Assembly: GCF_006345805.1 (NCBI RefSeq) | Contig: NC_043025.1 | Coordinates: forward strand, 2,542,001 to 2,606,000 | Direction: 5' to 3' | DNA length: 64,000 nt | From: Octopus sinensis | Taxonomy: Eukaryota | In this document: in pieces, positions 1 through 63,735 of the stretch | Numbering within the stretch: the stretch's first letter is position 1 | Layout of the letters: each line of letters opens with the position of its first letter | Translations under genes and position numbers: made by a program | Notes under the pieces: generated by a model | Databases searched by the model: none | What the model was told of the DNA's origin: nothing | What the model saw: only the letters and a program-made list of their open reading frames with translations

Positions 1-599
1 TGTCCTCTTTTCTCACTTTATCTGATTCTTAATACTCAACATTTATTATTTCAGTAGCGGGATCCATGAATATTCCACGGAATTAATTATAAAACTTTTC
101 GGTGACTCCTGAAAAATTTATCAAAAAAATCTGAAATCGTAGACTGTGTTGTGTGTGTATGAAAAGAATGTTTCTCATCTGCTATTCAATGAAAATTGAA
201 GGAAACTGAAATACGATGATTACTTAATGCACTTTATATATGTACTTTATATACTTCATGTACGATGTTATAGACTTAATACACAGCAATCATAAAATAA
301 ATATTTAATATTTTTTCCATATACCCCATAGAGAGAAAAATTACACTTTAAAATTTACATGGCCACAAATTCATATCAAGAAAACAAAAATATTATAGTA
401 AAAAAATTATTTTATAGGTAAAACATAGGGTTGAAAATTTAATGCAACATGGCATCGTCTGAAAGCCACATCGTTGGTAGTTCATAAGAAAGGCGGTGCA
501 TCAGAGCTTATACATATTTCAATTTGCGTACACCTTTCAATCCAATACTTCGTTACAGATTGTGTTGTTCGCGTAACTTCTCCCTCTTCTTTTCCCTTG

Positions 600-9020: not shown

Positions 9021-9052
<32 letters not shown>

Positions 9053-9104
9053 GTACATATATAAATGTATATGTATATCTATATAAGTGTATGTGTGTAT
9101 AAAG

Positions 9105-9460: not shown

Positions 9461-9625
9461 CACTTGAATATTTGGAAGATAATATTCTTTATATATATGT
9501 ATGTGTGACTGTATGTATGTGAGTGTGTATATATGATATTACTCGTGTGCATAGATATTCGCATGCATGTATATATGTATATAGATATATATATATATAT
9601 ACATATATAATATATATATATATTA

Positions 9626-9657
<32 letters not shown>

Positions 9658-10108: not shown

Positions 10109-10188
<80 letters not shown>

Positions 10189-10884
10189 GAACATGACCCA
10201 CATTGGGAACACGACACGCAGTTAGTGTGAGCGGTATACTTTCATAAGGAGTGGGAAGGTTTACTATGAGAAAAGATGGAATAAGCAGAGCGTGAACTTT
10301 TCGATTTGTGTCACATAATTTGAAATTTGAAAAGTATGTGGAAATCTTGAAATTTATTGATTTATTCGAGAAAAAGTTTAGAAAACACATCAAAGGTTCG
10401 AAGTTTTATCATTTTTACCCCATTGGAAACAAGATTTGGAAGCTAAGCTGTTTGTGTTTGAACACTGTATCATAAAACAGAAGTAGGAGAGATTTTAACA
10501 AAAATGAAGCAATGATTGATTTTTAATCACATAGAGGTGAGAGAGAGAAGAGAGAGAGAGAGAGAGCATCAAATAGTATGGCAAATATAGATACATGGGT
10601 AGTGAAAGATATAGAGTGGGGAGTTGAGATCTCAAAGTTGGGTTATTTCACGTGGAGGATATGATATTTATTATATATTATGGACGATGTTTACCTTGGA
10701 AATCGAATTTCGAAAATCAAATTCGTTTTTTTCTCGTGGACGCAAAGTTTCAGAGGCTTGCAGGTTTAAAAACACAAAAAAACACTACACCCGTATATAT
10801 GTATATATGTATGTATGTATATATGTATGTATATATGTAAGTATGTATGTATGTATGCATGTATGTATGTATGCATGTATGTAT

Positions 10885-10931
<47 letters not shown>

Positions 10932-10955
10932 AAAAGCAACAAGAATGGATTAGTT

Positions 10956-11044
10956 TTCAGTTCAATTGTTTCATACGAAAACAGCTTTATTAAAAGCTGA
11001 AGATATTGCAGCAAATACAAGTGTCCCGTATTCATCAGCCTGAA
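10956..11044 (-). ncRNA. Hammerhead-like motif (type I, decayed) in a ~300-bp insertion present only in copy A
   Basis: Minus strand: ttcagg-CTGATGA-ATACG...CGTAT-GAAA-CAATTG-aa-ctgaa. The cleavage-site U is mutated. Confidence 0.55.
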
Positions 11045-11283
11045 CACATATGAGTTTTCCAAACATCCTAGGAGTGAGGCTACACTTATGAAGTATCGAA
11101 GAGAGTTTCAATAAAAGCAAAGTCAGATTGTATCAGACTTCAAAAGTTCTCTAATGATGCACACTTTTGAAGTTAAGTACCGCATTCATGTGAACCCATT
11201 GGAACTCACTTGAATCTTAATTTATAGATATAGATATATGTTAATATATTAGATATACGTTATACATAAATTGTTATATATAT

Positions 11284-11332
<49 letters not shown>

Positions 11333-11559
11333 CATACATATATAGTAGAAATATGTTCAATAAGAAAATAGAAAATACGAGTGGAAATATAAGGGAAAAT
11401 ATGAAAAATTCACGAAAATGCACATTGTAAATAAAACAAGAAAAAGCTTTTTATGAAAGCTACCGACATATATATATACGTTTAGATGGACTGAGGTAGT
11501 AATAAGAGTCATAAAAGTCATTATTATGAGATGAAAAGAGTCAGAAAGCATACCATGCT

Positions 11560-13428
11560 TTCTGAGCGGTGTCAGTCTAAAAGTTCCTGAGTAAAAAATT
11601 ATTTGTAAGGGAGGTAAGTAGTTCTGGATTTTGTGCAGTAAGGTTAGATATAGAATAGTAATGTGAATGGTGTAGGAATGTATAGTGGTTAGTGGTGTTA
11701 ATTGAAGGGTTAGTAGTGTTCTATATTAGTTATGCGTTTATATTCAGTTATGGAAGATATTTATTGATGAAATTGCGTCTTTATTCAGCCTTTGTTGCAT
11801 TGGGGTGTTCTGTGAACATTGAATAGGGAAAGATTTAGAAATTAGGATTAAGATTCATGTGTTCACTAAGCTGTAACTGTCTGTATTGTGGGTGGCGGAT
11901 TTGCTCTCTTTGGATGGTGGTTCTTCGACGGAGTGATTTCAGTTTGTCCAATATAGTGGTTACCGAATCTAAGCATGTCATTGCATAGATTAGATTTTCC
12001 GAGGCGCAGGGGAAATTTGATTTGATCTTAAATATTTCACCTTGTTTGAAGTGGAATTCTGAATAATCCAAAAGGTGGGGGCATGTTCCACAGTTGAGAC
12101 GACCACATTTTTTTCACTTTTGTCTGTTAGTGGATATAGTGACTTCAGTTGCATTTTGCTTTCTATAATTTTGTATGAGCTTAAAATTTCGTTCGATGTT
12201 ATGTCTCCTGTGAGGATGGGAGGATTTGGGGTGACAATATCGAAGGCCTCGTTGTTTCTAGGGTTATGTGTGGAAATGTACGGGAGTATTTTTAAGTCTG
12301 GTTTAGTATTTCGGCTGGCTTGCCTTAATATTTGTATATCTAATTCCTTAGCTCTTTTAATGTCATCATTCATGAATGAGATTCGGGAATGTCTTTTAGT
12401 TAGTGTTGATCTAAGTTCAAGGAGTCTTGTTCACCAGTATATGTATCCGAAACTATGGTGCAAATTCTTTTCGTTAGATTAAAAGATATATTAATTTTTA
12501 TGTGTTTCGGGTAGGAAGAGTTAAATATTAGGTGTTGTTTAGAATCTATGGGTATATAAATGATGCCTGTTTCTATGTGGTTGATAACTATTTTAATTAA
12601 GATGTCTAGAAAAGGGATTTGTTTACTGTTGTGTTCCATAGTGAACTGTATATTGCTATGTATGTTGTCAAGCATTACTTGCAAATCAATAGTTGCAAAT
12701 CAGCAAGATGAATTTGAGTGCTTTGATTATGATTCTGTGGTTTGTGCATACTGAGATGGATAAACATAGTCATGTGGGGTATTGGTGTACAGATTCACCA
12801 CATCGAAAGATACCAACAGGGTTCCTTCCTTTAATGTATTCGGGAGGTGGTTCAGCATGTCTAGGTCATCACTGATAAGTCTTTGCACATATTTTTATAA
12901 AACGTTTTGAGTAAGATGTCGAGGAAGTTGCTCAAACGGCGGGTTTCACAAGAAAGGCCATCTATGATGGGTCTCAGTTTGAGGTCAGTAGGGGGAGGGA
13001 CATTAATGCATAAGCTTGTAGAGACTTTGCAGGCTTCAGAAATGTGTGGATTTTTATGTATTTTGGGTAATCCGTAGAATAGATTAGGACTGTATTTAAA
13101 ATTGGATAAAAAGTCTATTTCAAGATTAGTGAGACGCTTTCCATGAATTTGGAGTAAAGAGGGCAGGTTTTCTGTGGGTTGTATTGTATTAACTTCTAAT
13201 AAGTATTATTTTCCAACATGGAAAGTATTAAATTTTGTAGTATTCTGTATTCATCACTACTACCGCACTTCCTTTGTCGGCTTCTTGGAATACGTTGAAT
13301 TTGGAATTTACGAGGCAAAAGTATTGGTGTAGAGTTTTAGCCAGCGTTCGTAGATTTCTTTCTGCCGTGTGGTGTTTTAATCGTATTGCAGAAATAAAAT
13401 TTTCTGGCTTTAAGTTTTTCATTCCATA
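11560..13428 (-). mobile_element. Degenerate Penelope-like element (Penelope/Poseidon-type RT plus GIY-YIG), copy A
   Basis: Motifs EADKGSAVVVMN, IQFTMEHNSKQIPFLDILI, ILPYISTHNPRN and FPCASENLIYAMTCL, with many frameshifts. Confidence 0.88.
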
Positions 13429-13557
13429 TGCCTCCTCACACAAAACACACACACCACACACACAACACACACAACACACACACACAGGCACACACACATA
13501 CACCCATACACACACACACACACACATATACATATACATATATATATATATATTATG

Positions 13558-14399
13558 TACAGGATACCGTAAATATAGCCTCGTCTAAATTATGCCAAAA
13601 TGAAAAACACTGACATCCCATTTTAACAGGTATATTTACCAGTATAACAGAAAAATATCTTGAAAGTAAATGTATTCAATAAAATCGCTGTTGGCTTCAA
13701 CCACGTCTTGCGGTCAGCTTCGGAATCTCCTGCAACTCCTCTCGACGGTCACCTTGTTTAATTTCGTGAATACTGCCATAATCCTTGCATTCAGTTTATC
13801 TTTGATGCTACAAGGGGTTTTGCTGACCTCTCAGTCAACTGCGCCCCACGCATAATAATCAAGGGGGTTCCAGTCTGGGGAGTTAGATGGCGTGATTTTA
13901 GGGGTGATGTGGTCGCAGAATTTGTCTGACAGCCATGGCTGGGTTCTCCTGGTTGTATGGCATGGTACACAGTACTGCTACCAGAGATAAGATCTTCCAT
14001 CAGCCACCCCTTTGCTCTAGGGAAGCACTACCTTCTCCAGGCACTTGATGTAGGCCACCGTATTGAGTATGAAACCGTGAATGAAAGCATAATGTCCCAT
14101 CACTAGTGATCACTCCAAACACCATGATGTTGACTGGATGATTGATTTTTATCAGTCGGAGTACATGTCCTTGGATTGAACATTCCTCAGACTGACACCC
14201 AAACACTCTGAAATGTTCATATTAGATCTTTCGGCACGGAATGCCAAGCAGTACAGCATGTCGTTTCAAAAAGTTATGGCAGAGTGACAGACGGTACCCA
14301 ACTGATCATACTATACTGAGTGGTCGACAAAATCAAAACACAAGAATGCGCATGCGGAAATTAAAAAGGTAATGTGGCAATTTCGTGTTGCAACGTGTA
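13558..14399 (-). mobile_element. Deleted IS630-Tc1-mariner DNA transposon (maT/DD37D-like)
   Basis: HPVNIMVFGVITSDG and NSPDWNPLDYYAWGAV on the minus strand, with TA-flanked TACAGG/TACACG-type termini. Paralogue at 48385-49497. Confidence 0.8.
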
Positions 14400-14554
14400 T
14401 ATATATATATATATATATACATACGATTAGTGTTGGCATGAATGTGATATAATATTTTCTCTTGTATTCAGTCCCACTGCGTGTATCTGGCTTACAGCAC
14501 AACAAACTCGTGTATATTTGTTCAAGGTAACTAAAAGAAACCCATCGTATACAT

Positions 14555-15403
14555 ACCAAGTGGCATCGTAATGTTCCTGATGAGTTATGTTTAATAAAAC
14601 CAACTTATATTAACTTCATCTCCTTCGTAAAGTCACCTTGTGCAGGAATACACCGCCAAGCTTTTCGAATACATCCGATCCAGATTTCTTGACACTTTTG
14701 GAATCCGGCCTGGTGAGGACATCTTGATCTCAACAACGGTGTTAAATTTCCTATTGATCTCGATCAGTGAACCGTATTTTTATCTTGGGAAGAGATGGAA
14801 GTCACCAAGTGCTGAATCTAGCAATAAAGACATGCACAGAAGCGATAGCATGTTGCTTCTGGCAAGAACCCACGAGTGTGGTGACAGGGTACATTGTCGT
14901 CTAAAAAATCCAATACTTTGCGCCACCACAAACCCAGTCACGTTTCTCGAATGTCCTCCTTGAAAAGCTTTAAAATATCGCAGTTGATCTCTCCTTTGGA
15001 TTCGGGGTCGAATTCTCAATGCACAATGCTGACGATGTAGAAAAAATATTGAAATGCTCTTTGGTTAAGCTGTCATTCTGTCGTGCACCTGTGAACTTGA
15101 AATATTACGTGCGACCCATTGTCTCATCGCTAAAAGCTTGCCAATGCATGCTACATCTTCCCAATTTTTACGTAAAGTTTCATGTTGGTTCTTTCTTCCA
15201 TACCCGTCCTATTCATACACGTCATCACAAAAATACAAATTCCACATCGTGTGAAGTATACACATCGATGTTACTCAGCATACTTCATCATGAAGGTCAC
15301 TGCTCGCTATCACCGTACATGCAAATGTGTGCATGCAAATGTGTGCATCCAAGCGTTGGCGCGCTATAGAGTTTTTCCGTGAAATTTTGATACAATCGCG
15401 TAT
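14555..15403 (-). mobile_element. Deleted mariner-type transposon
   Basis: LDSALGDFHLFPR is a decayed YSPDLAPxDF motif. Imperfect TIRs read TAC..GTGG.ATC and TACACG...GTATCAAAATTTC. Paralogue at 49644-50476. Confidence 0.75.
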
Positions 15404-15431
15404 ATATAAATATATATATATATATATATAA

Positions 15432-15652
15432 GTAATAATTATCGCTATACTAATATGGCAGTCTTATAAATATAAGACTAAAGCTGTCGCTGATTAGCTC
15501 CACGAGGCCACCGTCTCTAGCTAGCTACTTGAACACACAACTGCGCACGTTATAAACCTTCGCACAGCGGAGGTTCCGCCGCTTCATCCTGCTAGTCAGC
15601 ACAGCTGCATACACGTTCCAGTTGTTGCCCTTTATCATTACTAACTGCTGTA
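15432..15652 (-). mobile_element. Diverged partial relative of the ~360-bp hammerhead repeat
   Basis: TATCGCTATACTAATATGGCAGTCTTATAAA...AAAGCTGTC...TTAGCTCCACGAGGCCA aligns to the unit at 37362. The core is decayed (aTGATAA...GGAA-CGTG-TA). It lies in (TA)n and is absent from the paralogous site near 50480. Confidence 0.7.
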
Positions 15653-18814: not shown

Positions 18815-19520
18815 AGAAGGTTTGAAAATGCAATGTTAAAAAATGTTTATTTACTTGACCGGTTTCAGTTATTTAGAAAGAATTGTCAAAAGCAACATGT
18901 AAAATCTTTGTTGTGTTAGGTACTGGTTGTCACAAAATATTACAATACATATATACATTCTTTGATAATAATAAGAATATGTTAAACACAGTTTACAAGG
19001 GAAAATCTTGGGAAAATATAAAAGAAATTTGACAAGTTCATTAAAATATTGGGTACAAAAGATTACAATACATATATACATTCTTTGATAATAAAAAGAG
19101 AATGTTAAAAACAGTTTACAGAAAGAATTATTAAAAAGTTCAGAGGAAAATTGGTATTGTATCTGTATATATACACACAGAAAATTATAAGTTCAAAAAG
19201 GTTACATTTTGGTAGTATATAAATGTACAATGAGGGAGATATGTTTAGTTTGAACTGACCTGATTCCCCATATTATCGTAAAAGCTTTTACGATAATATG
19301 CGGAATCAGGTCAGTTCAAACTAAACATATCTCCCTCATTGTACATTTATATACTATCTAAATGTTCATATTATTATCAAAGAATGCGTATATGTATTGT
19401 AGACAATCAGTACCTAACACAACAAAGCTTTTACATGTTACTTTTGACAATCTTTTTGTAAAAAAGTGAAACCGGTCAAGTAAATAAACATCTTTTAAAA
19501 TTGCATTTTCAAACCTTCAT
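18815..19520. repeat. Fold-back element with outer inverted arms, each carrying a hammerhead motif, and a 144-bp inner palindrome
   Basis: 18815-18970 is inverted at 19369-19518. The palindrome 19213-19356 is centred on AAAAGCTTTT with one mismatch. The HHR at 19438-19483 (+) reads ttactt-TTGACAA-tctttttgtaaaaaagt-GAAA-CCGG-TC-aagtaa. Confidence 0.85.
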
Positions 19521-20560: not shown

Positions 20561-21557
20561 ATATATTACTTATATCATCTGAACAATATACAATGGTAGT
20601 GTTATGGAATAAAGAATATCGTTTAATTCATTCTCTCTTATTCACCTCTGTTTAAACACTAAACAGAAAAAGGAAAAAGAAACAATTTTTCCACAATAAA
20701 AAATCGAGATGCAACAGACATAATTCAAAAATCTTTAGTACCAGTCTTCAACGCGGGTTTCGAAATAGCAAATCCAAATCGCCATACAATACCACCATAT
20801 AAACACCAGTTGCTGATGTCACATAAATCATTGAAATTTTACATCTGATCAGAACCGAACTTGAGCAAACACAACAAAGTGACGCTTTAAGAGAATCAAC
20901 CAACTGGAATGGTTTATGCCCGTCCCCCAATGGGAAGTCAACCAGGCAGAACAACAACCTTGCCCACCAGAAAAATTAGACGTCACCTGTAATTTAATGA
21001 ATCAAATACCAGATCGGTTCACGGAAATAATTGTAAACACATCCAATTCCAAAAAACGCCGTTACAAGCAAAAGTCCTTGCACACGACGGACAATGATTC
21101 ACAGAGACTGTGCTCAAAGATTTCCCTTTTTCCACTATCTCAATTTCTCCCTTGTTTTTCTCCTTCTTTACCCTGTATGGCCGAAACTCTGATGATATAC
21201 ATTTCTTATCGATCTTTTGAATTTTATGCATTCAAACAAGATCTTCCACATTTTTTATATTATTGAATGTTATGAATATTTAAATCATATTTCATATTAC
21301 TGAAACTTGTAAACATTGAAACATGTTATTCTAGTTCATTATTTAAAATTTTTACCATTGATAAAAGTATTGTTGAAACTAGTTTGGTATGTATGTAAAA
21401 AAGGTTATTTAAAAACAATTCAAATAAGGTTATTTTTAAAAAATCCAAATTTAGGTGCATCGTGAACAACAAATTTTTATATAGTTTTGCCTCCTCATAT
21501 ATGCATACATACATACATACATACATATATGTATATATATATATATATATATTTATA

Positions 21558-21768
21558 TATCTATACAATAATATGTTACATTACTCGATAGTCAAGATAA
21601 AACTCTGAGTTTCAGATGCCGAAGTGGAAATCCACAACACCATCTCTTCGGTTATCTGGAAAATAGCCAGATAACCGAAGAGATGGTGTTGTGGATTTCC
21701 ACTTTGGCATCTGAAACTCAGAGTTTTATCTTGACTATCCAGTAATGTAACATATTATTGTATAGATA
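21558..21768. repeat. Near-perfect palindrome (102-bp arms, 7-nt loop) with a hammerhead-like motif in each arm
   Basis: Arms 21558-21659 and 21667-21768. The + arm reads agataa-CCGAAGA-gatg...catct-GAAA-CTCAGAG-TT-ttatct. Confidence 0.85.
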
Positions 21769-21829
21769 AATTTCCTCTATTTACATAATATTGAGGTCTC
21801 TTTCTTTCTTTTGTTATCTTACCGTTTTA

Positions 21830-31559: not shown

Positions 31560-33060
31560 ACTTCGTAAGCGTAACGAAATAATTTCGACCAAGATCTTAC
31601 CAATCTCGTTAAAGACATCACATTGAAACCCAGAAAAATAACAATCAAACCCCACCTAACTAAAACTTATATTATCATCGTGAGTCTTCAAAAATACTCT
31701 GAAATTCTCTTCAAAGCCGTCAAGACCGGCAACCTTTATAACGTTCCTCTAGATAAATACCGTGAGCTAATACTCAAGCAACTACATAAAGGCTACCATA
31801 TTGTACCGGTTCCACTCGAAAAGACATCATCATCAAGAACCGTGATCTCGTTTTCGAACTCGGATTAGAAGATAGGACTGAACCTTCCTTAACTCGCACA
31901 TTCGATATTAACGTAGAAGACTAGAAAATAAAATTTGGCAAGGACCATTCCGTTCGCCTTATTTGCTTCTCCATTTCAGATACAAGTAAGATCACAAGAT
32001 TTTATCAGACAGGATTATACCCCCAACTGCATCCAACGTACACACTACACCTATGGCCTGAAATTACTCAAGCCGTCCAGTGGTTTAATTCCTAAAGCCC
32101 TAAACATGCTTTTAAATTCATCCAGATCGACATAGACCAAATCACTCTAGTGTATCCCTTATCCTTCTCAACAAAGTCCTCATGTTTGCAATGATACACT
32201 CTAACCTCACTTGTGACGATATTGATATAATCATATGATAAAACTGGGTACTTCTGGGCCAATAGAGACATTCGGGATTCTCGCAACCGCCGAATCGAAC
32301 AGATTAGAAAAAGGCTAAGATATATTTTTTAAAAAGTGGGCCTCTGCATCACATTTTGTAACAGCCTTAAAACTTCTAATTTCCTAGATGTCACCCTAGA
32401 TCTACAAAGTCAAATTTTCTACCCATGCCATAAACTTAAGGGGAACCTCCACTACGTCAACTTTTCCTCCAAACACAACGCCAGTTGTCCTAAACTCTAT
32501 CGTAGATATCGTATCAAAACGGATTTCATCACTGCCCGCCGGTACGGAAATATTCGAACAATACGCTGAATATTATAATTGCGCCTTACAACGCTCCGGT
32601 CATAAGAATTCGATCGAATATACCCCTATGTGGAACAAGCCTCCCTCAACTAACCTCGGAACCAAGAATACACCCTTCCCTCTTAATACCCGACCCCTTG
32701 TACCCATGCTCTTCTTCACCATACACGAGAAGCATCTCCCTATGTCCAGCCCCTATACCAAAATATTTAACCCGCAATCTATAATATTTTCCTACTCCTC
32801 CACCACTGAAATTGTTGGACCAATCCGAAATCTTAACAAAATGAAACTTTGAAACATACAATTAGTTACCTTTATCATAAGAACATAACTCACCCGAACC
32901 CCCAGCCTCATATCCACAAAACTAGAACACACTTCAACTTCCTTACTAACACTGACCCTTTAAGACAAAGCATTGTCTGACACTACCTATTTATCTCGAC
33001 TAATCCATAAACTTCAACATAAATCAATTTCTTGTAATCTGAAATGGTTTATGATCATCT
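31560..33060 (+). mobile_element. Heavily decayed Naiad-type Penelope-like element
   Basis: SNFLDVTLDL..IFYPCHK..LHYVN.SSKH and KHLPMSSPYTKIFNPQSIIFSYS. Paralogue at 38500-39833. Confidence 0.75.
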
Positions 33061-37242: not shown

Positions 37243-37326
<84 letters not shown>

Positions 37327-37328
37327 TA

Positions 37329-37367
<39 letters not shown>

Positions 37368-37520
37368 GTTATCGCCATACTAATATGGCATTCTTTAAAA
37401 TAAGAATAAAGCTGTCCGCTTATTAGCTCCATGAGGCCATCGCCTTAAGTTAGCTATTTGATACACAACTGTATCCATATAACCTTCGACAGGGAGTCAG
37501 TCGCTCCACACTACTTGACC

Positions 37521-37572
37521 GGCAGCTACAGACGCGTTTCGGGGTATTGCCCCTTTTCAATGCAGCGTAGCC
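37521..37572 (-). ncRNA. Type I hammerhead ribozyme, U3-A8 core
   Basis: gctgca-TTGAAAA-GGGG-caata-CCCC-GAAA-CGCG-TC-tgtagc. Confidence 0.85.
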
Positions 37573-37878
37573 AGACCAGTAGGTGTCGCTTCTGACAATT
37601 TCTGTTCGAAGGTTTTATTTACCTAGCTTCGGTGGAATACATCCACTTGTTTTCAAAATAGAATATTAAAATTGCTAAGTCTCTCTAAAGAACAACGGCA
37701 GCGTTTCCGGAAAATAATAGTTATCGCCATACTAATATGGCATTCTTATAAAAATAAGAATAAAGCTGTCCGCTTACTAGGTCCATGAGGCCATCGCCTT
37801 AAGGTAGCTATTTGATACACAAACTGTATCCATATAACCTTCGAACAAGGCAGGTCAGTCGCTCCACACTACTTGACC

Positions 37879-37930
37879 GGCAGCTACAGACGCGTTTCGG
37901 GGTATTGCCCATTTTCAATGCAGCGTAGCC
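37879..37930 (-). ncRNA. Type I hammerhead ribozyme with one stem II mismatch
   Basis: Same motif, with the 5' strand of stem II reading TGGG. Confidence 0.75.
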
Positions 37931-38240
37931 AGACCAGTAGGTGTCGCTTCTGACAATCTCTGTTCGAAGGTTTTATTTACCTAGCTTCGGTGGAATACAT
38001 CCACTTGTTTTCAATAATAGAAATATTAAAATTACTAAGTCTCTCTAAAAGAGAACAACGGCAGCGTTTCCGGAAAATAATAGTTATCGCCATACTAATA
38101 TGGCATTCTTATAAAAATAAGAATAAAGCTGTCCGCTTATTAGCTCCATGAGCCATCGCCTTAAGTTAGCTATTTGATACACAAACTGTATCCATATAAC
38201 CTTCGAACAAGGGAGGTCAGTCGCTCCACACTACTTGACC

Positions 38241-38292
38241 GGCAGCCGCAGACGCGTTTCGGGGTATTGCCCCTTTTCAATGCAGCGTAGCC
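38241..38292 (-). ncRNA. Type I hammerhead ribozyme
   Basis: Same motif. The 3' strand of stem I is tgcggc and still pairs with gctgca, so the changes preserve the structure. Confidence 0.85.
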
Positions 38293-38499
38293 AGACCAGT
38301 AGGTGTCGCTTCTGACAATATATATCCTTTATATATATATAGATACATAAATATACATATATACGACGGGCTTCTTTCAGTTTCCGTCTACCAAATCCAC
38401 TCACAAGGCTTTGGTCGGTCCGAGGCTATAGTAGAAGACACTTGCCAAAGGTGCCACGCAGTGGGACTGAACCCGGAACCATGTGGTTGCTAAACAAGG

Positions 38500-39833
38500 G
38501 ACCTCCTAAGCGTGACCTAGACAATTTCGAGCAACATCTTGAACATCAAATTTAAACCTAGAAAAATAACAATCAAGCCCGCCTAACTAAATTCAATAAT
38601 ATCCTCAAGAGTCTTCAAAAATACTCTGAAATTCTCTTCCAAGCCGTCAAACCCGGCAACATTTATAATGCTCCTCTAGATAAATACCGAGATCTAATAC
38701 ACAAATAACTACATAAATGATACCGTATTGTACCAGCCTCCGTTCTAAAAGACATTTACATCAAGAATCGTGATCTCGTTTTTAAACGCGCATTAGAAGA
38801 TAGGACCGGACGTTACTTAACTCGCTCACTCCATATTAACGCAGAAGACCATAAATTAAAATCTGCCGAGAACCCTTCCGTTCGCCTCATTTGTCCCTTC
38901 AGTTCAGATATAGGTAAGATTAGCAAGATTTCATCAGACAGGATTATACCCCCAACTACACCTATGGACTGAAATTACTCAAGCCGTCCAGTCGTTTAAT
39001 TCCTAAAGCCCTAAACATACTTTTAAATTCATCCAGATCGACATAGACCAAATTACTCTAGTGTATCCTTCTCAACAATGTCCTCATTTTTGCAATGATA
39101 CAATCTAACTTCTCTTGTGACGATATTGATACCATCTTGGCCGCCCGTCGACATGTGAAAACTGAGTAATTCTAGGCCAATAGAGTCATTCGGGATTCTC
39201 GCAACCGCGAAATCGAACAGATTAGAAAAAGACCAAGATATCTTTTTAAAACGGTGGGCCTCTGCATCACTTTATGTAGCAGCCTTAACACTTCTAATTT
39301 CCTAGATGTCACCCTAGATCTACAAAGTCAAATTTTCAACCCATGCCATAAACTTAAGGGGAACCTCCACTACGTCAACGTTTCCTCCATCAACAACGCC
39401 AGTTGTCCTAAACTCTATCGTAGATATCGTATCAAAACGGATTTCATCACTGTCCGCCAGTAAGGAAATATTCGAACAATACGCTGAATATTATAATAGC
39501 GTGACGGTCATAAGAATTCGATCGAATATAACCCTGTGTAGAACATTCCTCCCTCAACTAACCTTGGAACCAAGAATACACCCGTCCTCCACATAAAACA
39601 AAAAATATCCCGCAAAACCGATCGTCCTACTAGCCTCCCAAATTTTAAAGTAGTAGATGATCTAACAAACAATCTCCCCACTCGGTGACCCTTGACACTA
39701 ACACTGTCTCAGCCCGCCGATATCAACACCCGTATGCCCTTTCAAAACCCTTTATTTACTCGGATAAACCTATCAATCGGAATAAGATAACAAGAACACG
39801 TGAAGTTATCTGGTTTCGGTTCTCTAAACCATT
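38500..39833 (+). mobile_element. Decayed Naiad-type Penelope-like element (paralogue of 31560-33060)
   Basis: SVRLICPFSSDIGKISK, SNFLDVTLDL and RTREVIWF motifs. Confidence 0.75.
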
Positions 39834-41472
39834 CTTTTTTTTCCCAACAGAAAGAAAACGAGGTATTGAACCTCTCACTACAATTTTTACAATTATTGGA
39901 CTTAATAGTCCATAACAAATAATAACATACAATAATATACAATAAAATATTCAATATACAATCAACACTAGTCCATTTACAAGTGAGGCACTGAGATTCT
40001 TACACATTATAAAACTGAGGCTTTTCAACCTCTTGTCAATCCTCATTATCGCTTGTGTACGTGTACTCCACCATATCCCCTGCTTGCTTTAAAATCAAGG
40101 TATGCTCCGAGTTGGCGTCACCCGGTCACGAGCGATATTCCTCTTTTAGTCCCCCCAGCCTATGAAATATGCGCAGCGTTATGAACTCCACACCCATCTG
40201 CGGAGGCAATTCGGGTTACCGTGCGAAGGCCAAAGGTACTCCCTTGTAGTGTTCTACTACCACCTTTTCCACCACTCCCCCTCTATAACAGAAGAACAGC
40301 AGTTCTTCCTCCTCCGGGTCCGAAATAGTCAATTCTACCGTTAGCGGAACAATTCTTACCAAGTGTGTCTACCCACGCACCCCCGCCGGTTGCACGACCC
40401 CCACCGATGAGGCTCCATGTCTCCGACTGTCGGCAATATCCCGTTTCTCCTTTTTCCTCTTTTTGCTTCTTGACTGAGGGAGGGTGCATCTCGTCCGTGA
40501 CCGGAACATGTGCCTCCCCTCCCGCATTCCCAGAATCCATCGGTGAGCACCCATTATTACTCACCTTCTTCCTTTTGCGGCTCTTCTTTGAGGCATCCTC
40601 TGTCTCCTCGGCCGCCTTCATTCCCTCTTCTACAGAGGTCTCCGTCAACCGCTCCAGGACTTAGCTTTGCAGTTGAGGACAGTTATTTTTTATATGGCCA
40701 GGCTCCAGGCACCGATAACACTTGGAGGTGGGCTCCCTCAAGCATCACCGGATACTTGGACCAGCCGATTCTCAAAAAGTCTGGAAATACCAGACTTACG
40801 GCTGACTTGGTCCAGAGGGTCAAAACAGCTTTTGAACCCTCCCAGTAAGCCGCAGGCAGAATATTTACATTGAAGAGCTTGGTGCTACTACCACCAAGAC
40901 CCAGGCGGATTGTATCTCCTATCCACTCGGTCTCTTCTCCGGGTGGAAAGCCGCAAACCCAAGCCCTCGTCAAATTCTTCCCACAATAAGTGGGAAGAAA
41001 CAAAATTTCATTGCCTTCCAGGAGCTGGCACGCAAATTCACAATCCACTTCTGGGAAGTCAAATAGTACCACACGTTTGCATATTTGACCCTCCGAGTGA
41101 TAAACTTAATAGCTGGCTTAGATTCTGCTATCTCTCTTTCGATTCTATTTTTTGAAAACGGCAATGGCGTCGAGGATCCTGGAGTAGGTCCTCAAAACCA
41201 CCGTCTTACATTCAAGTTCTTTTAATCATCTTTTGGGTGGTATAAATTCCCACTCCACCAACTTTCCATTGTTCTTTACCATGTTTCTTTTTTAAAAAGT
41301 CCAAAAAACACCTCATAAAATACAAAATAATTAAGGAAAAAGAAGGAAGAGTTAAAAGTCCAAACAAAAAAAGAAGAAAAAATTAACAGTTCAATAAAGA
41401 GTCTTTTTTAATTAAAAAAGGGGTGAAGAGAGAGCAACAGTTCAAAACACAGCAGAGGCCACTCGGTACTCC
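39834..41472 (-). mobile_element. Gag/ORF1-like element copy B with poly(A)-like end
   Basis: Frameshifted paralogue of ORF 3270-4025. The T run at 39834-39842 abuts the interrupted Naiad element. Confidence 0.7.
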
Positions 41473-42950
41473 AGGCCAAAATTTTAACGCAAATCATTCC
41501 AATTTTCTTCTCATAGGTAATCCTTAACAGGAACAATATTGTTGAAACCTTTTCTAAAAATTCCCAGACTTATTCCTGGACAAATATTATTCTCAAACAA
41601 AATTTTGCGGCGGGATACGCCCACAAAAACAATAATTTTCACAGTTAAGTCAAAAATTATTCACTCAGCTACAGGAAGACTAGAATCCAGTGAGGACTTC
41701 TTGTTTGCAAAAAATAATTGCGGCAGACAACATGCCCCCACTAGACCCCCAAAAAAGTCTTACCTTACAACTAAGTTTCAAAACTCTTCAATTTAAGACG
41801 GCTTCAAAAACACGTCTTTAGTCTTTACTGCTTCAGTATCAAACACAACTCCGATTCGCTAAGCACAATGAGGTAAGCAAGCTACTTACCACACAGCCAC
41901 TCCTGCACTGATTCTGGTGATGATTTTCAATTTTTTTTTCACCCCAACGTTTGAAATGATGGCAGGAATCTCTTTAAAAGTTGTGTGAATGTTTTGATTT
42001 TTTTCAAATCCCCAATCCCAATCGGTAACGATTTTGGCCAATGCTTTTGAATGACGCATTAACAAAAGTTTTAAATGAAAAATTTTGGAAATCGGTGATC
42101 ACCATTTTAATCCACGCTTTTTTTTCAAACAAAATGTGAAACGTTGTTTGAAAACAATGGCGACATTTTAACATTTTGTTCCTTAACCTCGCATATTCCC
42201 AAAACGATGTTATTTTCCCAGCAGCTTTTGCATTTTTTGTCCAACTTTAATGAAAATCGACGAGTGAGCAAGGCTCATGGCAGTGAGTTGATTTCAGTAT
42301 ATGACGTTGAGAAAAAAAATTGGTAATTGCACCGGAGCAGTGGTTTTATAAAATCAATAGACGTTTTGCGTGCAAATACCCATAGGGGTTTATTTTTGGC
42401 CGTAAATTTCATATTTTGTATCCGATTTTAATGAAATATGAAGTGTAGGTAAATGATTGGTGGGGTATATGGGAAATGTATTTATTTAATTCAAAAGAGC
42501 TTGAAAAGGACATAAATGTACATAAGCATTTCCATACAGACATTCTTAACGATTTTGTAGAAATTTTACATGTGATTACAGCTCATGTCCATTAGTTGAC
42601 ACCTGTATTAAGAGTTGACAAAAATCGATAACTGCGAGTGAGAGGGAGATTTCAAAAAAACAATGGGCTTTTTGTATGCAATTACCTATAGGATTAGTAT
42701 TTTATGCTGTAACTTTTACACAATTCATCCGATTTTGATGAACTTTGACTTTTAGGTAAGGTTTATGGCCGGAGTCATGTAGTAGAATTAAAATTAAAAT
42801 GATGAAAGGCAGAAATCGTCAAAATAATTCACAATAAAATAATGAACTGATTCTGAAGAAAATTGACATATAAAACGTCGATTATTTATACAATGTATTG
42901 AGATTTGAATGTCAATGGAATATTTTCATGTAAATGGTCAGACGTATTCG

Positions 42951-43335: not shown

Positions 43336-44287
43336 CATCTATCTATCTACCTATCTATCTATCTATCTATCTATCCATCTATACACATGTATATAGTTGA
43401 AGTTTACAGAAAAATAAAAGACGAACACAGATATATGAAATAGGTGTGTATTAGTTTGACACTCCGGAAAGTGTGAAAGCGCTTTACGTTTCGAGCCTAC
43501 GATCTTCAAAAGTAAAGAAAATGAGGAAATCACAGAAGTTCAAAAAGGATTAAATTTTCTAGTGTATTGGAGGGATATTTCATTAACAGATGAGTCCCGT
43601 GAGATCCATAAGTATACCCAGTGGCAGTCGGGTAGAGTGCAGATATGTAGAATCGGAGAGGTGCAGACAGATCAGGCAGTTATAAGTCCAATATGTAGGT
43701 ATATAAAGCAGGATAAAATAGGTGCGACCACTTGAGCGTACAATAGATTCATATATATATATATATATACATACATAAATATATATGTATATCTATATAA
43801 GTGTATGTGTGTATAAAGTCAATGGCGTGTCTGCGTAATAAGAAGCTTGATTTCAAACCACATGGAGTAGTGGTCAGTGTTAATACGTGCTGCCTTCACC
43901 AAGTGTCCAATTCTATGTACTCGTGTCGTGAGACGTTTTGTTGTCAGAAACTGAAAGAGGCCTGTCTTATGTATATACATGGGTGTATGAGTGTGTGTGA
44001 GCTTTAATTATTGTGGTTGTAATAGTCTCTGGAGATATTCCGTTCCCGTAACTTAACAGTTCCTCAAAAGAAACCGATATAAAAAGTAACAGACTTTCAA
44101 AATTTAAATACAGTGGAGAATATATTTGAATAAAATACCTTCTAGGAGGGTTGCCAGGATAGCTGCTGATTAATGACTTGAATAATTGGAAGATAATATT
44201 CTCTATATATATATATATGTATGTGTGAGTGTATGTGTATGAGTGTGTATATATGACATATACTGGTATGCATGGGTATACGTATGC

Positions 44288-44330
<43 letters not shown>

Positions 44331-44649
44331 TGTGCTTACACACACATACATATATATATATTTATATATAATTAACTGACAGACCCTCCGTAAATTAATC
44401 CAATTAATAATGAAACATATTATTTATAATAAAATATAAATATAATTATATTATTAATAATATACTAAAACATACAATACTAAATTATGCACATTACATC
44501 GACGAGGCGCGTTTCGTAACCATATATTTAAATCGACTTTATCAAAATTGATAATCTGAAAAATGAATACATAGCTACTCTTCAGGTCTAAATAGCATAA
44601 AAGAAATTTACAACATAAGTGAAGACATCAAAATTAACCCCTTAATTCC

Positions 44650-44681
<32 letters not shown>

Positions 44682-44799
44682 TTAGGCATATAATTCTTAT
44701 GCACATAGGTATACACACAATAACGCACAAAAATACGCACTCATTCTTATATCCACGCACGCAGACATAATGGCACACACACAGACACACCTATATATA

Positions 44800-44886
<87 letters not shown>

Positions 44887-45665
44887 GAACACGACACACA
44901 TTCGGAACACAACACACACTTAGTGTGAGCGATATACTTTCATAACGTGTAGGAAGGTTTACTATGAGAAAAGGAAAGAAGTAAGCAATTAGAGAGCGAC
45001 ACAATTTCAAATTTGAAAATTATGTGGTAATTTTGAAATTTATTGATTTATTCGAGAACAAGTTTAGAAAACACATCAGCAGTTCGAAGTTTTATCATTT
45101 TTACCCAATCAGAAAACAAGATTTGGAAGCTAAGCTGTTTGTGTGTGAACACTTGTATCCTAAAGTAAAAGTAGGAGATTTTAAACAAAATGAAAGCAAT
45201 GATTGATTTTTAATTCACATACACACACAGAGTGAGAGTGAGAGAAAGAGCATCAAATAGTATGGCAAATATAAGACACATGGGTAGTGAAAGAATATAT
45301 AGAGTGGGAGGTTGAGATCTCAAAGTTCGGTTATTTCACCTGGAGGAATATGATATTTATTATATGTTATGGACGATGTTTACCTTGGGAATCGGATTTC
45401 GAAAAGCAAATTCGTTTTACTCGAGGACGCAATGTTTCAGAGGTTCGCAGGTCTGAAAACATATAAAAAAACCACATACACCCGTATTTTTATAGCGTAT
45501 ATATAGCGTATGCATTTCTGTATGTGTGTATGTGTGTATGTATATTATATGTATGTATATATGTATCTATGTATGTATGCATGTATGTATGTATGTATGT
45601 GTTATATTTGTGTGTATAAATGTGTATGTATGTATGCATGTTTGTATATACATAATATTATATTT

Positions 45666-45718
<53 letters not shown>

Positions 45719-45959
45719 GTAGAACTATGTTATATATATATATATACATATATTAGAAATATGTTACAAGAAGAAAATAGAAAATACACGTCGAAATGTA
45801 ATGGGAAAATATGAAAAATCAACGAAAATGCACATTATAAATATAACAAAAAAAACTTTTTATGAAAGGTAATGACAGATATATACCTTTAGATGGATTG
45901 AGGTAGAAATAGGAGTCACAAGATTCATTATTATGAGATGATTAAAGAGTCAGAAAGCA

Positions 45960-48255
45960 TACCATGCTTTCATCATAAGCCATTCATTGCTTTGAATGAA
46001 CACCGGCTAATGAACAGTGTTAGTCTAATAGTGCCTGAATAAAAAGATTATTTGTAAGGGAGGTAAGTCGTTCTGGATTTTGTGCAGTAAGGTTAGATAT
46101 AGAATTTGAATCTGAATTTTGTAAGGAATGTATAGTGGTTTATGGTGTTAATTGAAGGGATAGTAGTGTTATGTATTAAGTTGTGTCTTTATATTCAGTT
46201 GGGGAAGATATTTATTGATGAAAATTGCCTATTTAATCAACCTTTGTTGCATTGATGTCTTCTGTGAACATTGATAGATGTGGAAAATTTGGAAATTAGG
46301 ATTAAGATTCCTAGCACACCTTTCAATGTATTCACTAACCTGTAACTGTCTGTATTGTGGTTGGCGAAATTGTTCCTTGTGGATGGTGGTTCTTCAACGC
46401 AGTGATATTCTTGTTTGTTTAATATAGTGGTTACCACATCCTAAGCATGTCATGGTATAGATTAGATTTTCCGAGTATCGGGTGAAATTTGAATTGATCT
46501 TAAATATTTCCTCTTGTTTGAAGTGGATTTCTGAATCCTCCAAAAGGTTGGGACATGTTCCACAGGTGAGACGACCACACTTTTTCTCTTTTGGCTCTGT
46601 TGTTAGTAGATATAGTCTTGCGCTGGTTAATTGTTTTTCAATGAATTGGGTTGTAGTTTGCTTTTTTAAATTTTGTATGAGCTTAAAATTTCGCTCGTTG
46701 TTTTGTCTCCTGTGAGGATGGGAAGATTTTGGGTGATAATATTGAAGGCTTCGTTGTTTCTAGGGTTATGTGTGGAAATGTACGGGAATATTTTTAAAGT
46801 CTGGTTTAGTATTTCGGCTGGCATGCCTTAATATTTGTATATCTATTTCCTTAGCTCTTTTAATGTATTTTAGTTAGTGTTGATCTAATTTCAAGGAGTC
46901 TTATTCACGAGTATATGTATCCGAAACTATTGTACAGATTCTTTTCGCTAGATTAAAAGGTGTATTAATCTTTATGCGTTTGGGGTGTCAAACAATAGGT
47001 ATTGTTTAGAATCTGTGGGTTTATAAAATATGTCTGTTTCTATGTGGTTGTAAACTATTTTAATTAAGATGTCCAGAAAAGGGAGTTGTTTACTGTTGTG
47101 TTCCAGAGTGAATTGTATATTGCTATGTATGTTGTTAAGCATTACTTTCAAATCAAGGAGTTTGTCCATGCTGTATTTCCAAAGTATGAAGCAATCATCC
47201 AAATACCTCATCCAGTTCTCCTTTAAATAGCAATTAAAAGAGGCGCCAATAATTTTCTAGTGATGATTGGTATAACTTCAGTTCTAGGTAACCCATTTCA
47301 AGGTTTGAAATCACTGGAGCAGCTCTGGTTTCCATTGCAATTCCACATTTTTGTCGATAGTAAGTTGTGTCGAACATGAAATAGTTGTTCAGCAGGATGA
47401 ATTTGAGTGCTTCGATTATGATTCTGTGGTTAATGCGTCCTGAGATATCTTCTGGGTATTTTTCTAGCCAGAATGTGATTGCTTCTATACCAGAGTCGTG
47501 TGGGGTATTGGTGTACAGATTAACCACATCGAAAGATACCAGCAGCGTTCCTTCCTTTACTGTATTCGGGAGGTGGTTCAGCATGTCTAGGTCATCCCTG
47601 ATAAAGCTTTTCACATATTTGTAAAGAACGTTTGGAGTAAATGTCGAGGAAGTTGCTCAAATGGTGGGTTCCACAAGAAGGGCGAACTATGAGAGGTCTC
47701 AGTTTGAGGTCAGTAGGTGGAAGGACATTAATGCATAGGCTTGTAGAGATTTTGCAGGCTTCACAAATGTGTGGATTTTTATGTATTTTGGGTAATCCAT
47801 AGAATAGACTAGGACTGTATTTAAAATTGGTTAAAAAGTCTATTTCAAGGTTAGTGAGACCCTTTCTATGAATTTGGAGTAAGGAGGGCAAGTTTTTCAG
47901 TGTTTACTGTGGGTGGTTATGTATTAATTTCTCATAGTAAATATTATTTTCCAACATGGAAAGTGTTAAATATTTGTAGTATTCTGTATTCATCACTACT
48001 ACCGCACTTCCGTTGTCGGCTTCTTCGGAATACGTTGAATTTCGAATTTACGAGGCAAAAGTATTGGTGTAGAGTTTAGCCAGCGTTCGTAGATTTCTGC
48101 CTTGTGGTTGTTTTTAATCGTATTCCAGAAAGAAAAGTTTCTGGCTTTAATTTTTTATTCCATATGTGGATAATACGGTTTTTGATAGATAGTGTGGAGG
48201 GATTGCTATCTTGTGTATCATCTATAGGAAGATTTACCAGTAGCACTCAAGAGCA
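45960..48255 (-). mobile_element. Degenerate Penelope-like element, copy B (more complete RT)
   Basis: FYGLPKIHK, LKLRPLI, SFDVVNLYTNTPH, QKCGIAMETRAAP, RYLDDCFI, LPFLDILI and YKPTDSKQYL. Confidence 0.92.
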
Positions 48256-48305
48256 TCCTCACACAAAACACACACACACAGAACACACACAACACACGCA
48301 CACAT

Positions 48306-48370
<65 letters not shown>

Positions 48371-48384
48371 ATATATATATTATG

Positions 48385-49497
48385 TACAGGTTACAGTAAA
48401 TATAGTGTCGTCTTAATTACGCAAAAATGAAAAAAACACTAAGATCCCATTTTAACAGGTATATTTACCAAAATAACTGAAAAATATCTTGAAAGTAAAT
48501 GTATTCAATAAATTCGCTATTGGCTTCAACCACGTCTTCCGGTCAGCTTCGGAATCACCTGCAACTCTTTTGGACGGTCACCTTGTTTAATTTCGTGAAT
48601 ACTGCCATAATCCTTGTATTCAGTTTATCTTTGATGTTACAATGGGTTTTGCTGACCTCTCAGTCAACTGCGCACCATGCATGATAATCAAGGGGGTTCC
48701 AGTCTGGGGAGTTAGATGGCGTGATTTTAGGGGTGATGTGGTCGCAAAATTTGTCTGACAGCCATGGCTGGGTTCTGCTTGTCGTATGGCATGGTACAGT
48801 GTCTCCCTGCTAGAGATAGGATCTTCCAGCAGCCATCCCATTGCTCCAGGGAAGCAGGACCATCTCCAGGCACTTGATGTTGACCTCCGTCTGAAACCTA
48901 TTTCTTTACTACCAACAAGGAGCTAAACATAGAGAGGACAAACAAGGACATACAAACGGATTAAGTCGATTATATCGACCTCAGTGCGTAACTGGTACTT
49001 ATTTACTCGACCCCGAAAGAATGAAAGGCAAAGTCGACCTCGGCGGAATTTGAAATCAGAACGTAGCGGTAGACGAAATACCGCTAAGCATTTCGCCCGA
49101 CGTGCTAACGTTTCTGCCAGCTCGCCGCCTCAATTCTGAAACCGTGAATGAAAGCATAATTTCACCATCACAAGCGATCGTTCCAAACACCATGATGTTG
49201 ACTGGACGTTTGATTTTTATCAATCTCAGTACATGTCCTCGGATTGCACATTCCTCTGACTGACACCCAAACACTCTGAAATGTTCATATTAGATCTTTC
49301 GGCGTGAATGCCAAGCAGTACAGCATGTCGTTTCCAAAATAAATTCTGGCAGAGTGAATTAGGCCATGGCGCTGTTTTTCTCACAGACGGTACCCAACTG
49401 ATCATACTATACTGAGTGGTCGACAAAATCAAAAACGAAGAACGCGCATGCGCGAAATTAAAAAGGTAATGGTGACAATTTCGTGTTGAAACCTGTA
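48385..49497 (-). mobile_element. Tc1/maT-like DNA transposon relic, copy B
   Basis: KRPVNIMVFG and NSPDWNPLDY motifs, with TACAGGTT at both termini. Confidence 0.8.
48899..49134 (-). mobile_element. SINE with a Nin-like domain and 9-bp TSD
   Basis: TSD TCTGAAACC at 48890-48898 and 49135-49143; contains TCGACCCCGAAAGAATGAAAGGCAAAGTCGACCTCGG. Absent from copy A. Confidence 0.8.
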
Positions 49498-49643
49498 TAT
49501 ATATGTACATTCGATAAGGCATTAGCATAATTGTGAAATAATATTTTCTACTGTATTCAGTCCCACTGCGTGTACTCTGGCTTACAGCACAACAAACTCG
49601 TGTATATTTGTTCAAGGTAACTAAAAGAAACCCATCGTATACA

Positions 49644-50475
49644 TACAAAGTGGCATCGTAATGTTCCTGGATGAGTTATGTTTAATAAAACTAACTTATA
49701 TTCACTTCATCTCATTCGGTAAAGTCACCTTGTGCAGGAATACACCCGATCCAGCTTTCTTGACACTTTTGGAATCCGGCCTCTTGAGGACATCTTGATC
49801 TCAACAACGGTGTTAAATTTCCTATTGATCACGATCTTTCTACCGTATTTTCTTCTTGGGGAAGAGATGGAGGTCACCAGGTGCTGAATCTGGCAAAAAG
49901 GACATGCACGGAAGCGATAGCCTGTTCCTCTTGGCAAGAAACCCACGAGTGCGGTGACAGAGTACATTGTCGTCGTGAAAAATTCAATAAGCCGCGCACC
50001 ACAAATCCAGTCAGTTTTCCCGAATGTCATCCTTGAAAAGCTTTAAAATGTCGCAGTTGATTCCTCTTTTGAACTTGGGGTTCGAATTCTCAATACACAA
50101 CCCGATGATGTAGAAACAATATTGAAAATTCTCTTGATTAAGCTGTCAATCTCTCGTACACCTGCGCACTCGAAACGTTATGTACGACCCATTGTCTCAT
50201 CGCTATAAACTTGCCGATGCATGCTCCATCTCTCTATAGCAGACTTCCCAATTTTTACATAAAATTTCATGTTTGGTGCTTTCTTCCATACCCGACCTGT
50301 TCATACACGTCATCACAAAAATACAAATTCCACATCGTATGAAGTATACACATCGATGTTACTCAGCATACTGCTTCATGAAGGTCACTGCTCGCTGTGA
50401 CCGTGCATTCAATCGTGTGCATCCAAGCGTTGGCGCGCTATAGAGTTTGCCCGTGAAATTTTGATACAACCGTGT

Positions 50476-50476
<1 letters not shown>
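49644..50476 (-). mobile_element. Deleted mariner-type transposon, copy B
   Basis: Aligns to 14555-15403. Confidence 0.75.
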
Positions 50477-50524
<48 letters not shown>

Positions 50525-61685: not shown

Positions 61686-61845
61686 TATATATATATATAT
61701 AGATCAATAAATGGTGGGGTTGTGTTGACCGCACGTGGAGAAATGATAAGTAAGGAAAAATTTTTTTAAAAGTGCAGATACAAAAAACAATGCAATTTTC
61801 TTTTTTCCCCTTTCTAATTTTTAAAATAACTTCTTAAAACATAAA

Positions 61846-61886
61846 TATTCTTGACAAGTCATACAATGACGAAAACCGGTTGAATA
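61846..61886 (+). ncRNA. Minimal type I hammerhead motif, U3-A8 core
   Basis: tattc-TTGACAA-GTCAT-aca-ATGAC-GAAA(A)-CCGG-TT-gaata. There is one extra A in the homopolymer. Confidence 0.65.
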
Positions 61887-61976
61887 AATATATATTTATA
61901 TATTTTATCATTTTCTCATTTTATTAAAATTTTCTTTCATTTGAGGATTCTGCATTTTTTAAAAAATTTTCGTTAC

Positions 61977-62919
<943 letters not shown>

Positions 62920-63394: not shown

Positions 63395-63735
63395 GTTTTG
63401 ACCAATCGTTTCGTTAGGTGGCTTAGTCAAGCAGAACGGGACGTTATCAACATTCTGACCAATCGTGACCTATCGCTGTATTATAACTGCCTCTTGTCTG
63501 TATTCCTGTTTTGACCAATCGTTTCGTTAGATGGCTTAGTCAAGCAGAACGGGACGTCATCAAAATTCTGACCAATCACGACCTATAGCTGTATTAGATC
63601 TGCCCCTTGTCTGTACCTGTTAGGTGACTAGTCAAGCAGAAAAGGACGTCATCAATATTCTGACTAATCTCTGCCCCTTGTCTGTATCCTGTCCAGTCTA
63701 GCAGAATTAGACGTAATCAACATGTTGACCAATCA
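63395..63735. repeat. Degenerate ~113-bp tandem repeat rich in TGACCAATC (CCAAT) and GACGT motifs
   Basis: GTTTTGACCAATCGTTTCGTTAG occurs at 63395 and 63508; AGTC(A/T)AGCAGAA recurs four times. Confidence 0.8.

Follow-up and report, generated by a model that had tools for sequence, protein, structure and literature searches.

A tandem array of non-coding 352-363-bp units in a 64,000-nt stretch of Octopus sinensis DNA (the window) belongs to a young, dispersed repeat family that, as far as its sequence tells, probably works like a non-LTR retrozyme and is one. Two properties stand out: insertions of this repeat carry the ends of Penelope-like elements (PLEs), and one fixed site within the unit is the specific target of a LINE. 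The reading that we favour, with a probability of roughly 0.65, is that of a young, protein-free non-LTR retrozyme with Penelope-type ends, which would be transcribed from an snRNA-type promoter, cleaved as a dimer, closed into a circle and copied by a reverse transcriptase (RT) of Neptune or Naiad type. The ends are directly visible in the DNA, while promoter, dimer cleavage and circle are what we infer. The original prediction included neither a promoter-like motif nor a LINE with a fixed target site.

The repeat family in the window and in the genome

Between 37362 and 38319 TRF detects a tandem repeat with a period of 362, 2.7 copies and 95% matches, and together with the unit boundaries this bears out the predicted head-to-tail succession of a 352-bp unit, a 363-bp unit and a partial third (Table 1). 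The units are non-coding, and no ORF of 100 aa was found across the array. Positions within the unit are given below as q1-q363 on the minus strand, q1 being 38076 and q363 being 37714. Near-identical copies had also been announced 25 kb away; the near-identity is real (97.5-98%, 62073-62864), but these copies are a head-to-head two-armed insertion rather than a plain array. Elsewhere, the window holds a 113-bp tandem repeat in two copies (63395-63615), an inverted repeat of 217 bp with 95% identical arms (21555-21771) that gives a weak mir-9-like Rfam match far below the gathering score, and old duplicated blocks of 80-91% identity (9028-15430 versus 43743-50504, 2859-5790 versus 39997-42949 and 31615-32679 versus 38543-39587) containing Neptune-type, L1/Tx1-type and Naiad-like remnants.

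Table 1. Features of the repeat and its surroundings, in positions of the window.
Feature	Position	Strand	Remarks
Decayed copy, older subfamily	15433..15652	-	75% identical in a 208-bp stretch; flanked by (TA)n runs on either side
(TA)n target microsatellite, left flank	37246..37361	.	
Repeat unit, copy 1 (352 bp)	37362..37713	-	One-armed insertion, whose 3' end (without tail) is on the left
Type I hammerhead, copy 1	37525..37566	-	C17 at 37531; predicted cut 37531/37530
Empty LINE target, copy 1	37577..37592	-	
Promoter-like motif, copy 1	37638..37650	-	
Repeat unit, copy 2 (363 bp)	37714..38076	-	Reference for unit numbering
Hammerhead, copy 2	37883..37924	-	C17 at 37889; predicted cut 37889/37888
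Empty LINE target (q127-q142), copy 2	37935..37950	-	
U1/U2-upstream-element-like motif, copy 2	37996..38008	-	AGT core 55 nt before q127
Copy 3, 5'-truncated (243 bp, q120-q363)	38077..38319	-	
Hammerhead, copy 3	38245..38286	-	C17 at 38251; predicted cut 38251/38250
Empty LINE target, copy 3	38297..38312	-	
TA-rich right flank	38320..38363	.	
Inverted terminal pair of intact Neptune-type PLE	61703..61979	.	Own 50-nt tail and minimal hammerhead
Second insertion, tail-less arm	62073..62515	-	One full unit and q283-q363; hammerhead 62242-62283
Second insertion, inverted arm	62515..62864	+	q74-q363 and q1-q63 tail; hammerhead 62594-62635

The 36-nt core of the young hammerhead has 995 exact matches in the genome and its reversed control has none, so that these cores are not there by chance. 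A looser core pattern, which leaves out the base of the young family at core position 7, detects older subfamilies with 671 matches (control 0). These dispersed cores lie on many contigs, in copies with neither LTR nor ORF. The first 100 of the 995 exact matches fall into 53 clusters in about a tenth of the genome, from which we extrapolate an estimate of some 500 young insertions. The longest arrays comprise 10 full units, and consecutive units carry the type I hammerhead.

The hammerhead motif

Each unit has on its minus strand the elements of a type I hammerhead, with a 6-bp stem I, UUGAAAA, a 4-bp stem II, GAAA, a palindromic helix III (two pairs and the palindrome) and GUC. This layout of stems, core and loop agrees in the three copies with what had been described, including the two stem I changes in copy 3 that keep the pairing. 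The further claim that every unit holds a complete hammerhead is right for copies 1 and 3 but not for copy 2, in which a substitution at 37911 breaks the first stem II pair, adjoining the core; either copy 2 is an imperfect ribozyme or 37911 is an assembly error. The proposed Rfam hammerhead search gave no match to the 969-bp region even at E<=10, likely because the core has U3-A8, a rarer variant, in place of C3-G8. To our knowledge, an Rfam match is not treated in the literature as a defining trait of non-LTR retrozymes. The U3-A8 core is known from the Cercyon PLEs of Schistosoma (PMC4209133).

The case for the hammerhead is made by the conserved core and by covariation rather than by folding energy, the 83-nt ribozyme region folding only modestly better than its shuffles (z -1.4 to -1.9). 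In 18 copies from several subfamilies, 94.8% of cells are paired (100% in stem I, 94% in stem II), as against at most 52% in slid controls. Subfamilies differ from one another in both strands of stems I and II, with double-sided changes in 6 of 30 pairs, a number that 65 of 500 shuffles reach and that concerns a structure itself drawn from the same sequences. All four bases occur at core position 7, the remaining core being fixed. The middle of helix III is CGCG in all 995 young cores, and a hand count in 100 of the 671 older rows gave CAUG 79 times, CUAG 16 times, CGCG three times and a non-palindromic sequence twice. Since the bases of the palindrome are unpairable within a monomer, their continued self-complementarity can be understood only through the pairing of two ribozymes, which points to a predicted cleavage as a dimer, along the lines of the model set out for hammerheads in PMC4209133. 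On these comparative grounds, helix III palindromes and stem covariation together show selection on the putative ribozyme, and dimer cleavage could readily be tested with the three natural palindromes.

For the monomer as a circle, folding predictions give z-scores of -6.9 and -7.5, and the stems of the hammerhead form across the circle junction. The opposite strand folds well too (z -4.8), so folding energy alone says little. None of the runs listed as containing the unit is catalogued as RNA; contigs from four presumed-RNA runs, which carry neither strand, ends nor level, span the ribozyme and most of the rest of the unit. As to activity in related systems, 8 of 9 Xenopus dimers are described as giving no cleavage in vitro (Li et al., 10.64898/2026.07.22.740005), and the minimal hammerheads of PLEs are described as poor cleavers (PMC4209133). 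Minimal-hammerhead-like motifs with a U3-A8 core and a palindromic helix III also occur in the window at 18889 (-), 19444 (+), 50681 (+), 63037 (-) and 61850-61885 (+); the first two are inverted around a hairpin at 19204-19365, and the last belongs to the terminus of a Neptune-type element. A similar motif, with an A3-U8 core by eye, was seen in the 3' UTR of another Neptune-like family (L089, L100).

Penelope-type insertion ends and candidate helpers

Eighty-four loci were mapped, namely 23 non-redundant loci among the 30 best BLAST loci, the second locus of the window and 60 fetched stretches, the last made up of the 53 clusters and 7 others (L120 and L121 overlap). Fifty-nine of these loci are two-armed insertions, and in 54 of the 59 exactly one arm bears a tail: one arm ends at q353-363 and the other in a tail ending at q54-69 (a 63-nt tail). 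This one-sided tail is the Penelope signature. The 3' ends run into TA-rich DNA in 131 of 139 cases. PLEs are described as having an arm that is inverted and truncated, a tail on one side only and a bias towards (TA)n (Craig et al. 2021, 10.1101/2021.04.23.441226), and the DNA-level traits of the repeat fit a non-LTR retrozyme moved by Penelope-like machinery. In the literature at hand such movement of animal retrozymes is proposed rather than shown, whereas here dozens of young insertions bear PLE-type ends. The mobilisation by a Penelope-like RT put forward in the original prediction is supported in part, by the (TA)n target, the head-to-head arms and the one-sided tail; a monomer circle as the sole template model is not.

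At their 5' side the arms behave differently from what linear cut monomers would leave behind. The predicted cut site is crossed by 114 of 141 arms, 38 of which cross two, and the pile-up of 5' ends that such templates predict is absent (3 of 135 at q186-192, with 2.7 expected), for which reason we rejected them. A 5'-end hotspot was seen at q226-q235 (17 of 135 arms), at the base of a long stem and a 6-bp palindrome. The arms overlap by at least one base at 43 of 57 junctions, to which BLAST over-extension may contribute.

The same genome contains an intact Neptune-type PLE family (98-99% identical copies, a 782-aa open frame), which serves as an internal control for the signature: its two ends lie about 50 nt apart in (TA)n, with a 50-nt tail, and its terminal pair in the window shares a (TA)n with the second retrozyme insertion. 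This family is a candidate helper. Its sequence bears no likeness to the unit (score 25, with a shuffled mean of 24), BLAST matches that seemed to indicate homology in four loci (L055, L074, L088 and L090) being AT-rich chance, and many intact, long Naiad-type ORFs exist in the genome, so that the helper may be of either type. One older-subfamily insertion (L233) was seen between converging copies of one Neptune fragment.

A site-specific LINE and a putative snRNA-type promoter

A young LINE came to light because five arms starting at q126/127 had common upstream DNA; these arms are LINE junctions, and a hotspot of simple truncation at q127 was discarded. The LINE is 5347 bp long, with a zinc-knuckle ORF1 (CX2CX4HX4C) and an ORF2 of endonuclease-RT-zf-RVT organization (Pfam Exo_endo_phos, RVT_1 and zf-RVT), and about 39 copies with the exact 3' motif are 97-99% identical. 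We label it Tx1-like on the strength of its architecture. This architecture agrees with that of Tx1 elements and is also common to the L1 clade; among the 120 homologues listed, the closest named one is from Argonauta and none is a named Tx1 reference. Its 3' end abuts q126/127 of the unit in 42 of 45 fetched copies and in 29 of the 30 best-matching 3' ends, and full-length copies are preceded by q142, which amounts to a target duplication of 16-17 bp. The LINE is site-specific at q126/127, its 42 of 45 copies on target exceeding the 20% used as a criterion of target specificity by Kojima (2015, PMC4494074).

Several observations show that these LINE copies inserted independently: some are 5'-truncated at the same target site (L229, L213), an off-target copy has its own duplication (L227), tandem copies are separated by a single target, and LINE haplotypes are uncoupled from those of the repeat. 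Their targets span at least six repeat haplotypes, and in a 29-kb array on C3, considered as a case of LINE and repeat amplified as one composite, the five LINE copies differ, which led us to drop that idea. In one two-armed insertion (L197-L200, G000:C3:72.50-72.53 Mb) five of five available targets are filled with a full-length LINE, each of a different haplotype. The LINE copies sampled (L120, L191-L230) look mosaic, with blocks of variants in changing combinations, and most are full length. A full-length majority is unusual for LINEs of this group.

The position of the target suggests how the repeat could be transcribed. A promoter matrix built from 24 U1/U2 loci alone (core at -54 to -58, anchored on a hexamer chosen by eye) scores highest on the sense strand of the unit at q72, which is 55 nt upstream of q127; this site ranks 2 of 726 on both strands, and its score is matched by 2 in 10,000 positions of the window. 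In older copies the motif is the best site in six of seven, 85-88 nt before the ribozyme core, and weak in one of them. Arms free of LINE sequence start at q127 in 3 of 135 cases (0.4 expected) and at q124-128 in 6 (2.0 expected). From these data q126/127 is likely to be the transcription start, and the retrozyme is likely transcribed from an snRNA-type promoter.

The first 16 bases of the LINE have 43 matches, of which 33 follow q126-142 (the control for q126-142 preceding a LINE 5' end giving 4), 2 follow U1 +1..17, 5 a third sequence and 3 other sequences. The third target (L318-L322), entered by a sister LINE of 85% identity, is a different hammerhead-bearing repeat; there, in 4 of 5 loci, the highest matrix score falls 80-83 nt upstream of the LINE, which is about 55-58 nt before the target start as placed from one junction. 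Sister LINEs of 92% identity (L315, L323-L325; G000:C15 near 29.0 Mb; C6502) begin with U1 +1..17. As no U1 gene or promoter was found beside the two U1-leader loci, the DNA shows a U1 leader and not an insertion into an intact U1 gene; stacked LINE remnants were seen within a U1 gene cluster. Because the three targets share little sequence, it is fair to infer that the LINE docks on the promoter complex. In this way the LINE would pinpoint, with single-base precision, where transcription likely starts, and so suggest how retrozymes come to be transcribed.

The template and alternative explanations

Units of one arm diverge by 1.0%, those of opposite arms by 0.9% and those of different loci by 2.5%, and in nearly every locus a diagnostic haplotype is common to both arms, which fits repeated copying of one short template. 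Rare variants found in at least two units affect all covering units 29 times and a subset 28 times (singletons number 359), and two arrays show variants with a period of four (L125, where one variant marks some but not all units of either arm) or two (L104); such subset variants and periods are not explained by a single monomer circle. The periods are explained by later tandem duplication and the two-arm variant of L125 suggests a multimer template at least once, so that some arrays need one or the other, and models with other templates stand beside that of a monomer circle. A-to-I edits have left no trace in the DNA (A>G 43, T>C 38, no bias). It could be that the same element, with the same kind of PLE helper, is copied from an uncut linear multimer starting at q126/127, the hammerhead being slow or serving to trim ends and circles being minor. 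Besides the periodic arrays and the L125 variant, this would draw on the arms starting at or near the predicted start and on the weak cleavage of many animal dimers. It is nevertheless rather unlikely in our view, as only six of the 135 arms begin near that start, as arms reach 10 units, as nearly all loci have one haplotype on both arms, and as palindromes and covariation betray selection on the ribozyme.

Three other explanations were weighed. Were the unit an ordinary pseudo-LTR of an autonomous PLE and the arrays its truncation products, PLE-like ends, tail and target would follow directly, and Xenopus retrozymes are described as homologous to PLE termini (Li et al., 10.64898/2026.07.22.740005). 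The unit is not always attached to a Penelope ORF, a point on which the original prediction had staked itself: with two PLE protein queries it was joined to one in none of 110 loci, that is 60 young loci with flanks of about 3 kb and 50 older-subfamily loci with flanks of 1.5 kb. Matches did lie in the flanks of 8 young loci, none joined, and of 1 older locus, in the wrong orientation, while two apparent unit-PLE composites (L091, L136) are separate neighbouring insertions. Conversely, a single one of 50 Neptune-RT loci has an old unit, 1.7 kb off and behind other repeats. The two queries left some room for this explanation, 150 of 7413 and 135 of 12943 candidates having been scored, but pure head-to-tail arrays of up to 10 units are unlike a truncated ORF-bearing element, and we hold it to be improbable. 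More improbable still is a satellite that owes its spread to recombination of DNA and whose ribozyme-like motif is dead: local periodic patterns do speak for some expansion at the DNA level, yet the insertions are short and scattered, their 3' ends are fixed at two points, their 5' ends are random and their tail is one-sided, all of which, like the covariation of the hammerhead, runs counter to it. Least credible of all is that the LINE is the mobiliser and the repeat its 3' end or passenger. The repeat does follow 42 of 45 LINE 3' ends, but it is also found 5' of the LINE with the target duplicated, which largely refutes the idea; in addition, 79 of the 84 loci sampled first have no LINE junction, the repeat has PLE-type ends, and the haplotypes of LINE and repeat are uncoupled.

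Relation to known elements

The octopus unit has at the DNA level what characterizes non-LTR retrozymes, cleavage and circles being predicted. Like those described in other metazoans (PMC7229834; 10.64898/2026.07.22.740005), which measure about 170-400 nt, it is a non-coding tandem unit of low GC, of the 350-390 bp seen in Mytilus, with a type I hammerhead per unit (helix I of 6 bp, helix II of 4 bp, helix III short and palindromic), and a PLE has been proposed as helper in both cases. It differs from them by its U3-A8 core, and it adds insertions into (TA)n whose two arms stand head to head and of which one ends in a 63-nt tail, as well as the snRNA-type promoter-like motif and the targeting LINE. 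The words 'inverted', 'microsatellite', 'cephalopod' and 'squid' are absent from the text available of Cervera and de la Pena (2020, PMC7229834), and the sample given for Li, Clavereau and Pollet (2026, 10.64898/2026.07.22.740005) consists of 31 vertebrates, three insects and a coral. No cephalopod retrozyme or retrozyme-targeting LINE was found in the literature searched, subscription papers, Repbase and Dfam being outside its scope.

With the pseudo-LTRs of Neptune and Naiad (10.1101/2021.04.23.441226) the unit has in common the inverted 5'-truncated arm, the tail at one end and the (TA)n bias, and with PLE minimal hammerheads the U3-A8 core of Schistosoma Cercyon (Cervera and de la Pena 2014, PMC4209133). 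In contrast to these, it has no ORF, a tail of 63 nt rather than 30-40 nt and a full-size hammerhead on a long stem. The LINE resembles Tx1-clade elements (Kojima 2015, PMC4494074) in its endonuclease-RT-zinc finger ORF2, its fixed target in another repeat, its duplication of about 16 bp and its tandem copies separated by one target; target-specific members named there are Tx1L in Tx1D, Keno in U2 genes and Tx1-Mar in Mariner-N4_AMi. The octopus LINE differs in that its target is the predicted transcription start of a ribozyme repeat, and in having sisters of 85-92% identity whose unrelated targets lie equally far from a promoter-like motif that they have in common.

A model for the probable retrozyme and its significance

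Under the retrozyme reading, the U1/U2-like element at q72 would direct transcription from q126/127, 62 nt before the cut site, with read-through of the array. Two successive hammerheads would then pair via their palindromic helix III and release a monomer of 358-363 nt; a host ligase would seal it, a step demonstrated with retrozymes of coral, mussel and axolotl. A PLE endonuclease would open a (TA)n, and each broken end would prime on the RNA at q363 or q63, fixed points 63 nt apart that the insertions display; the RT would pass the cut sites and circle the unit until two cDNA arms meet head to head. Long arrays would later grow by tandem duplication, as is seen in some of them. Finally, the 5.35-kb endonuclease-RT LINE would enter at q126/127, the observed site, likely borrowing the promoter of the repeat.

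This may amount to a three-tier system of parasites, in which a ribozyme RNA is made from an snRNA promoter, its circles are copied in Penelope fashion from both ends of a break and a LINE docks on the promoter, a picture that is possible but tentative. What underlies Tx1-type target choice becomes directly testable with LINE subfamilies that are nearly identical but enter unrelated targets. If the picture is true, the LINE finds its site by way of the promoter complex and not of the sequence, so that it inserts at position +1 both of U1 and of several retrozymes, and it would take the first 17 nt as a leader, changing target with little change in its proteins.
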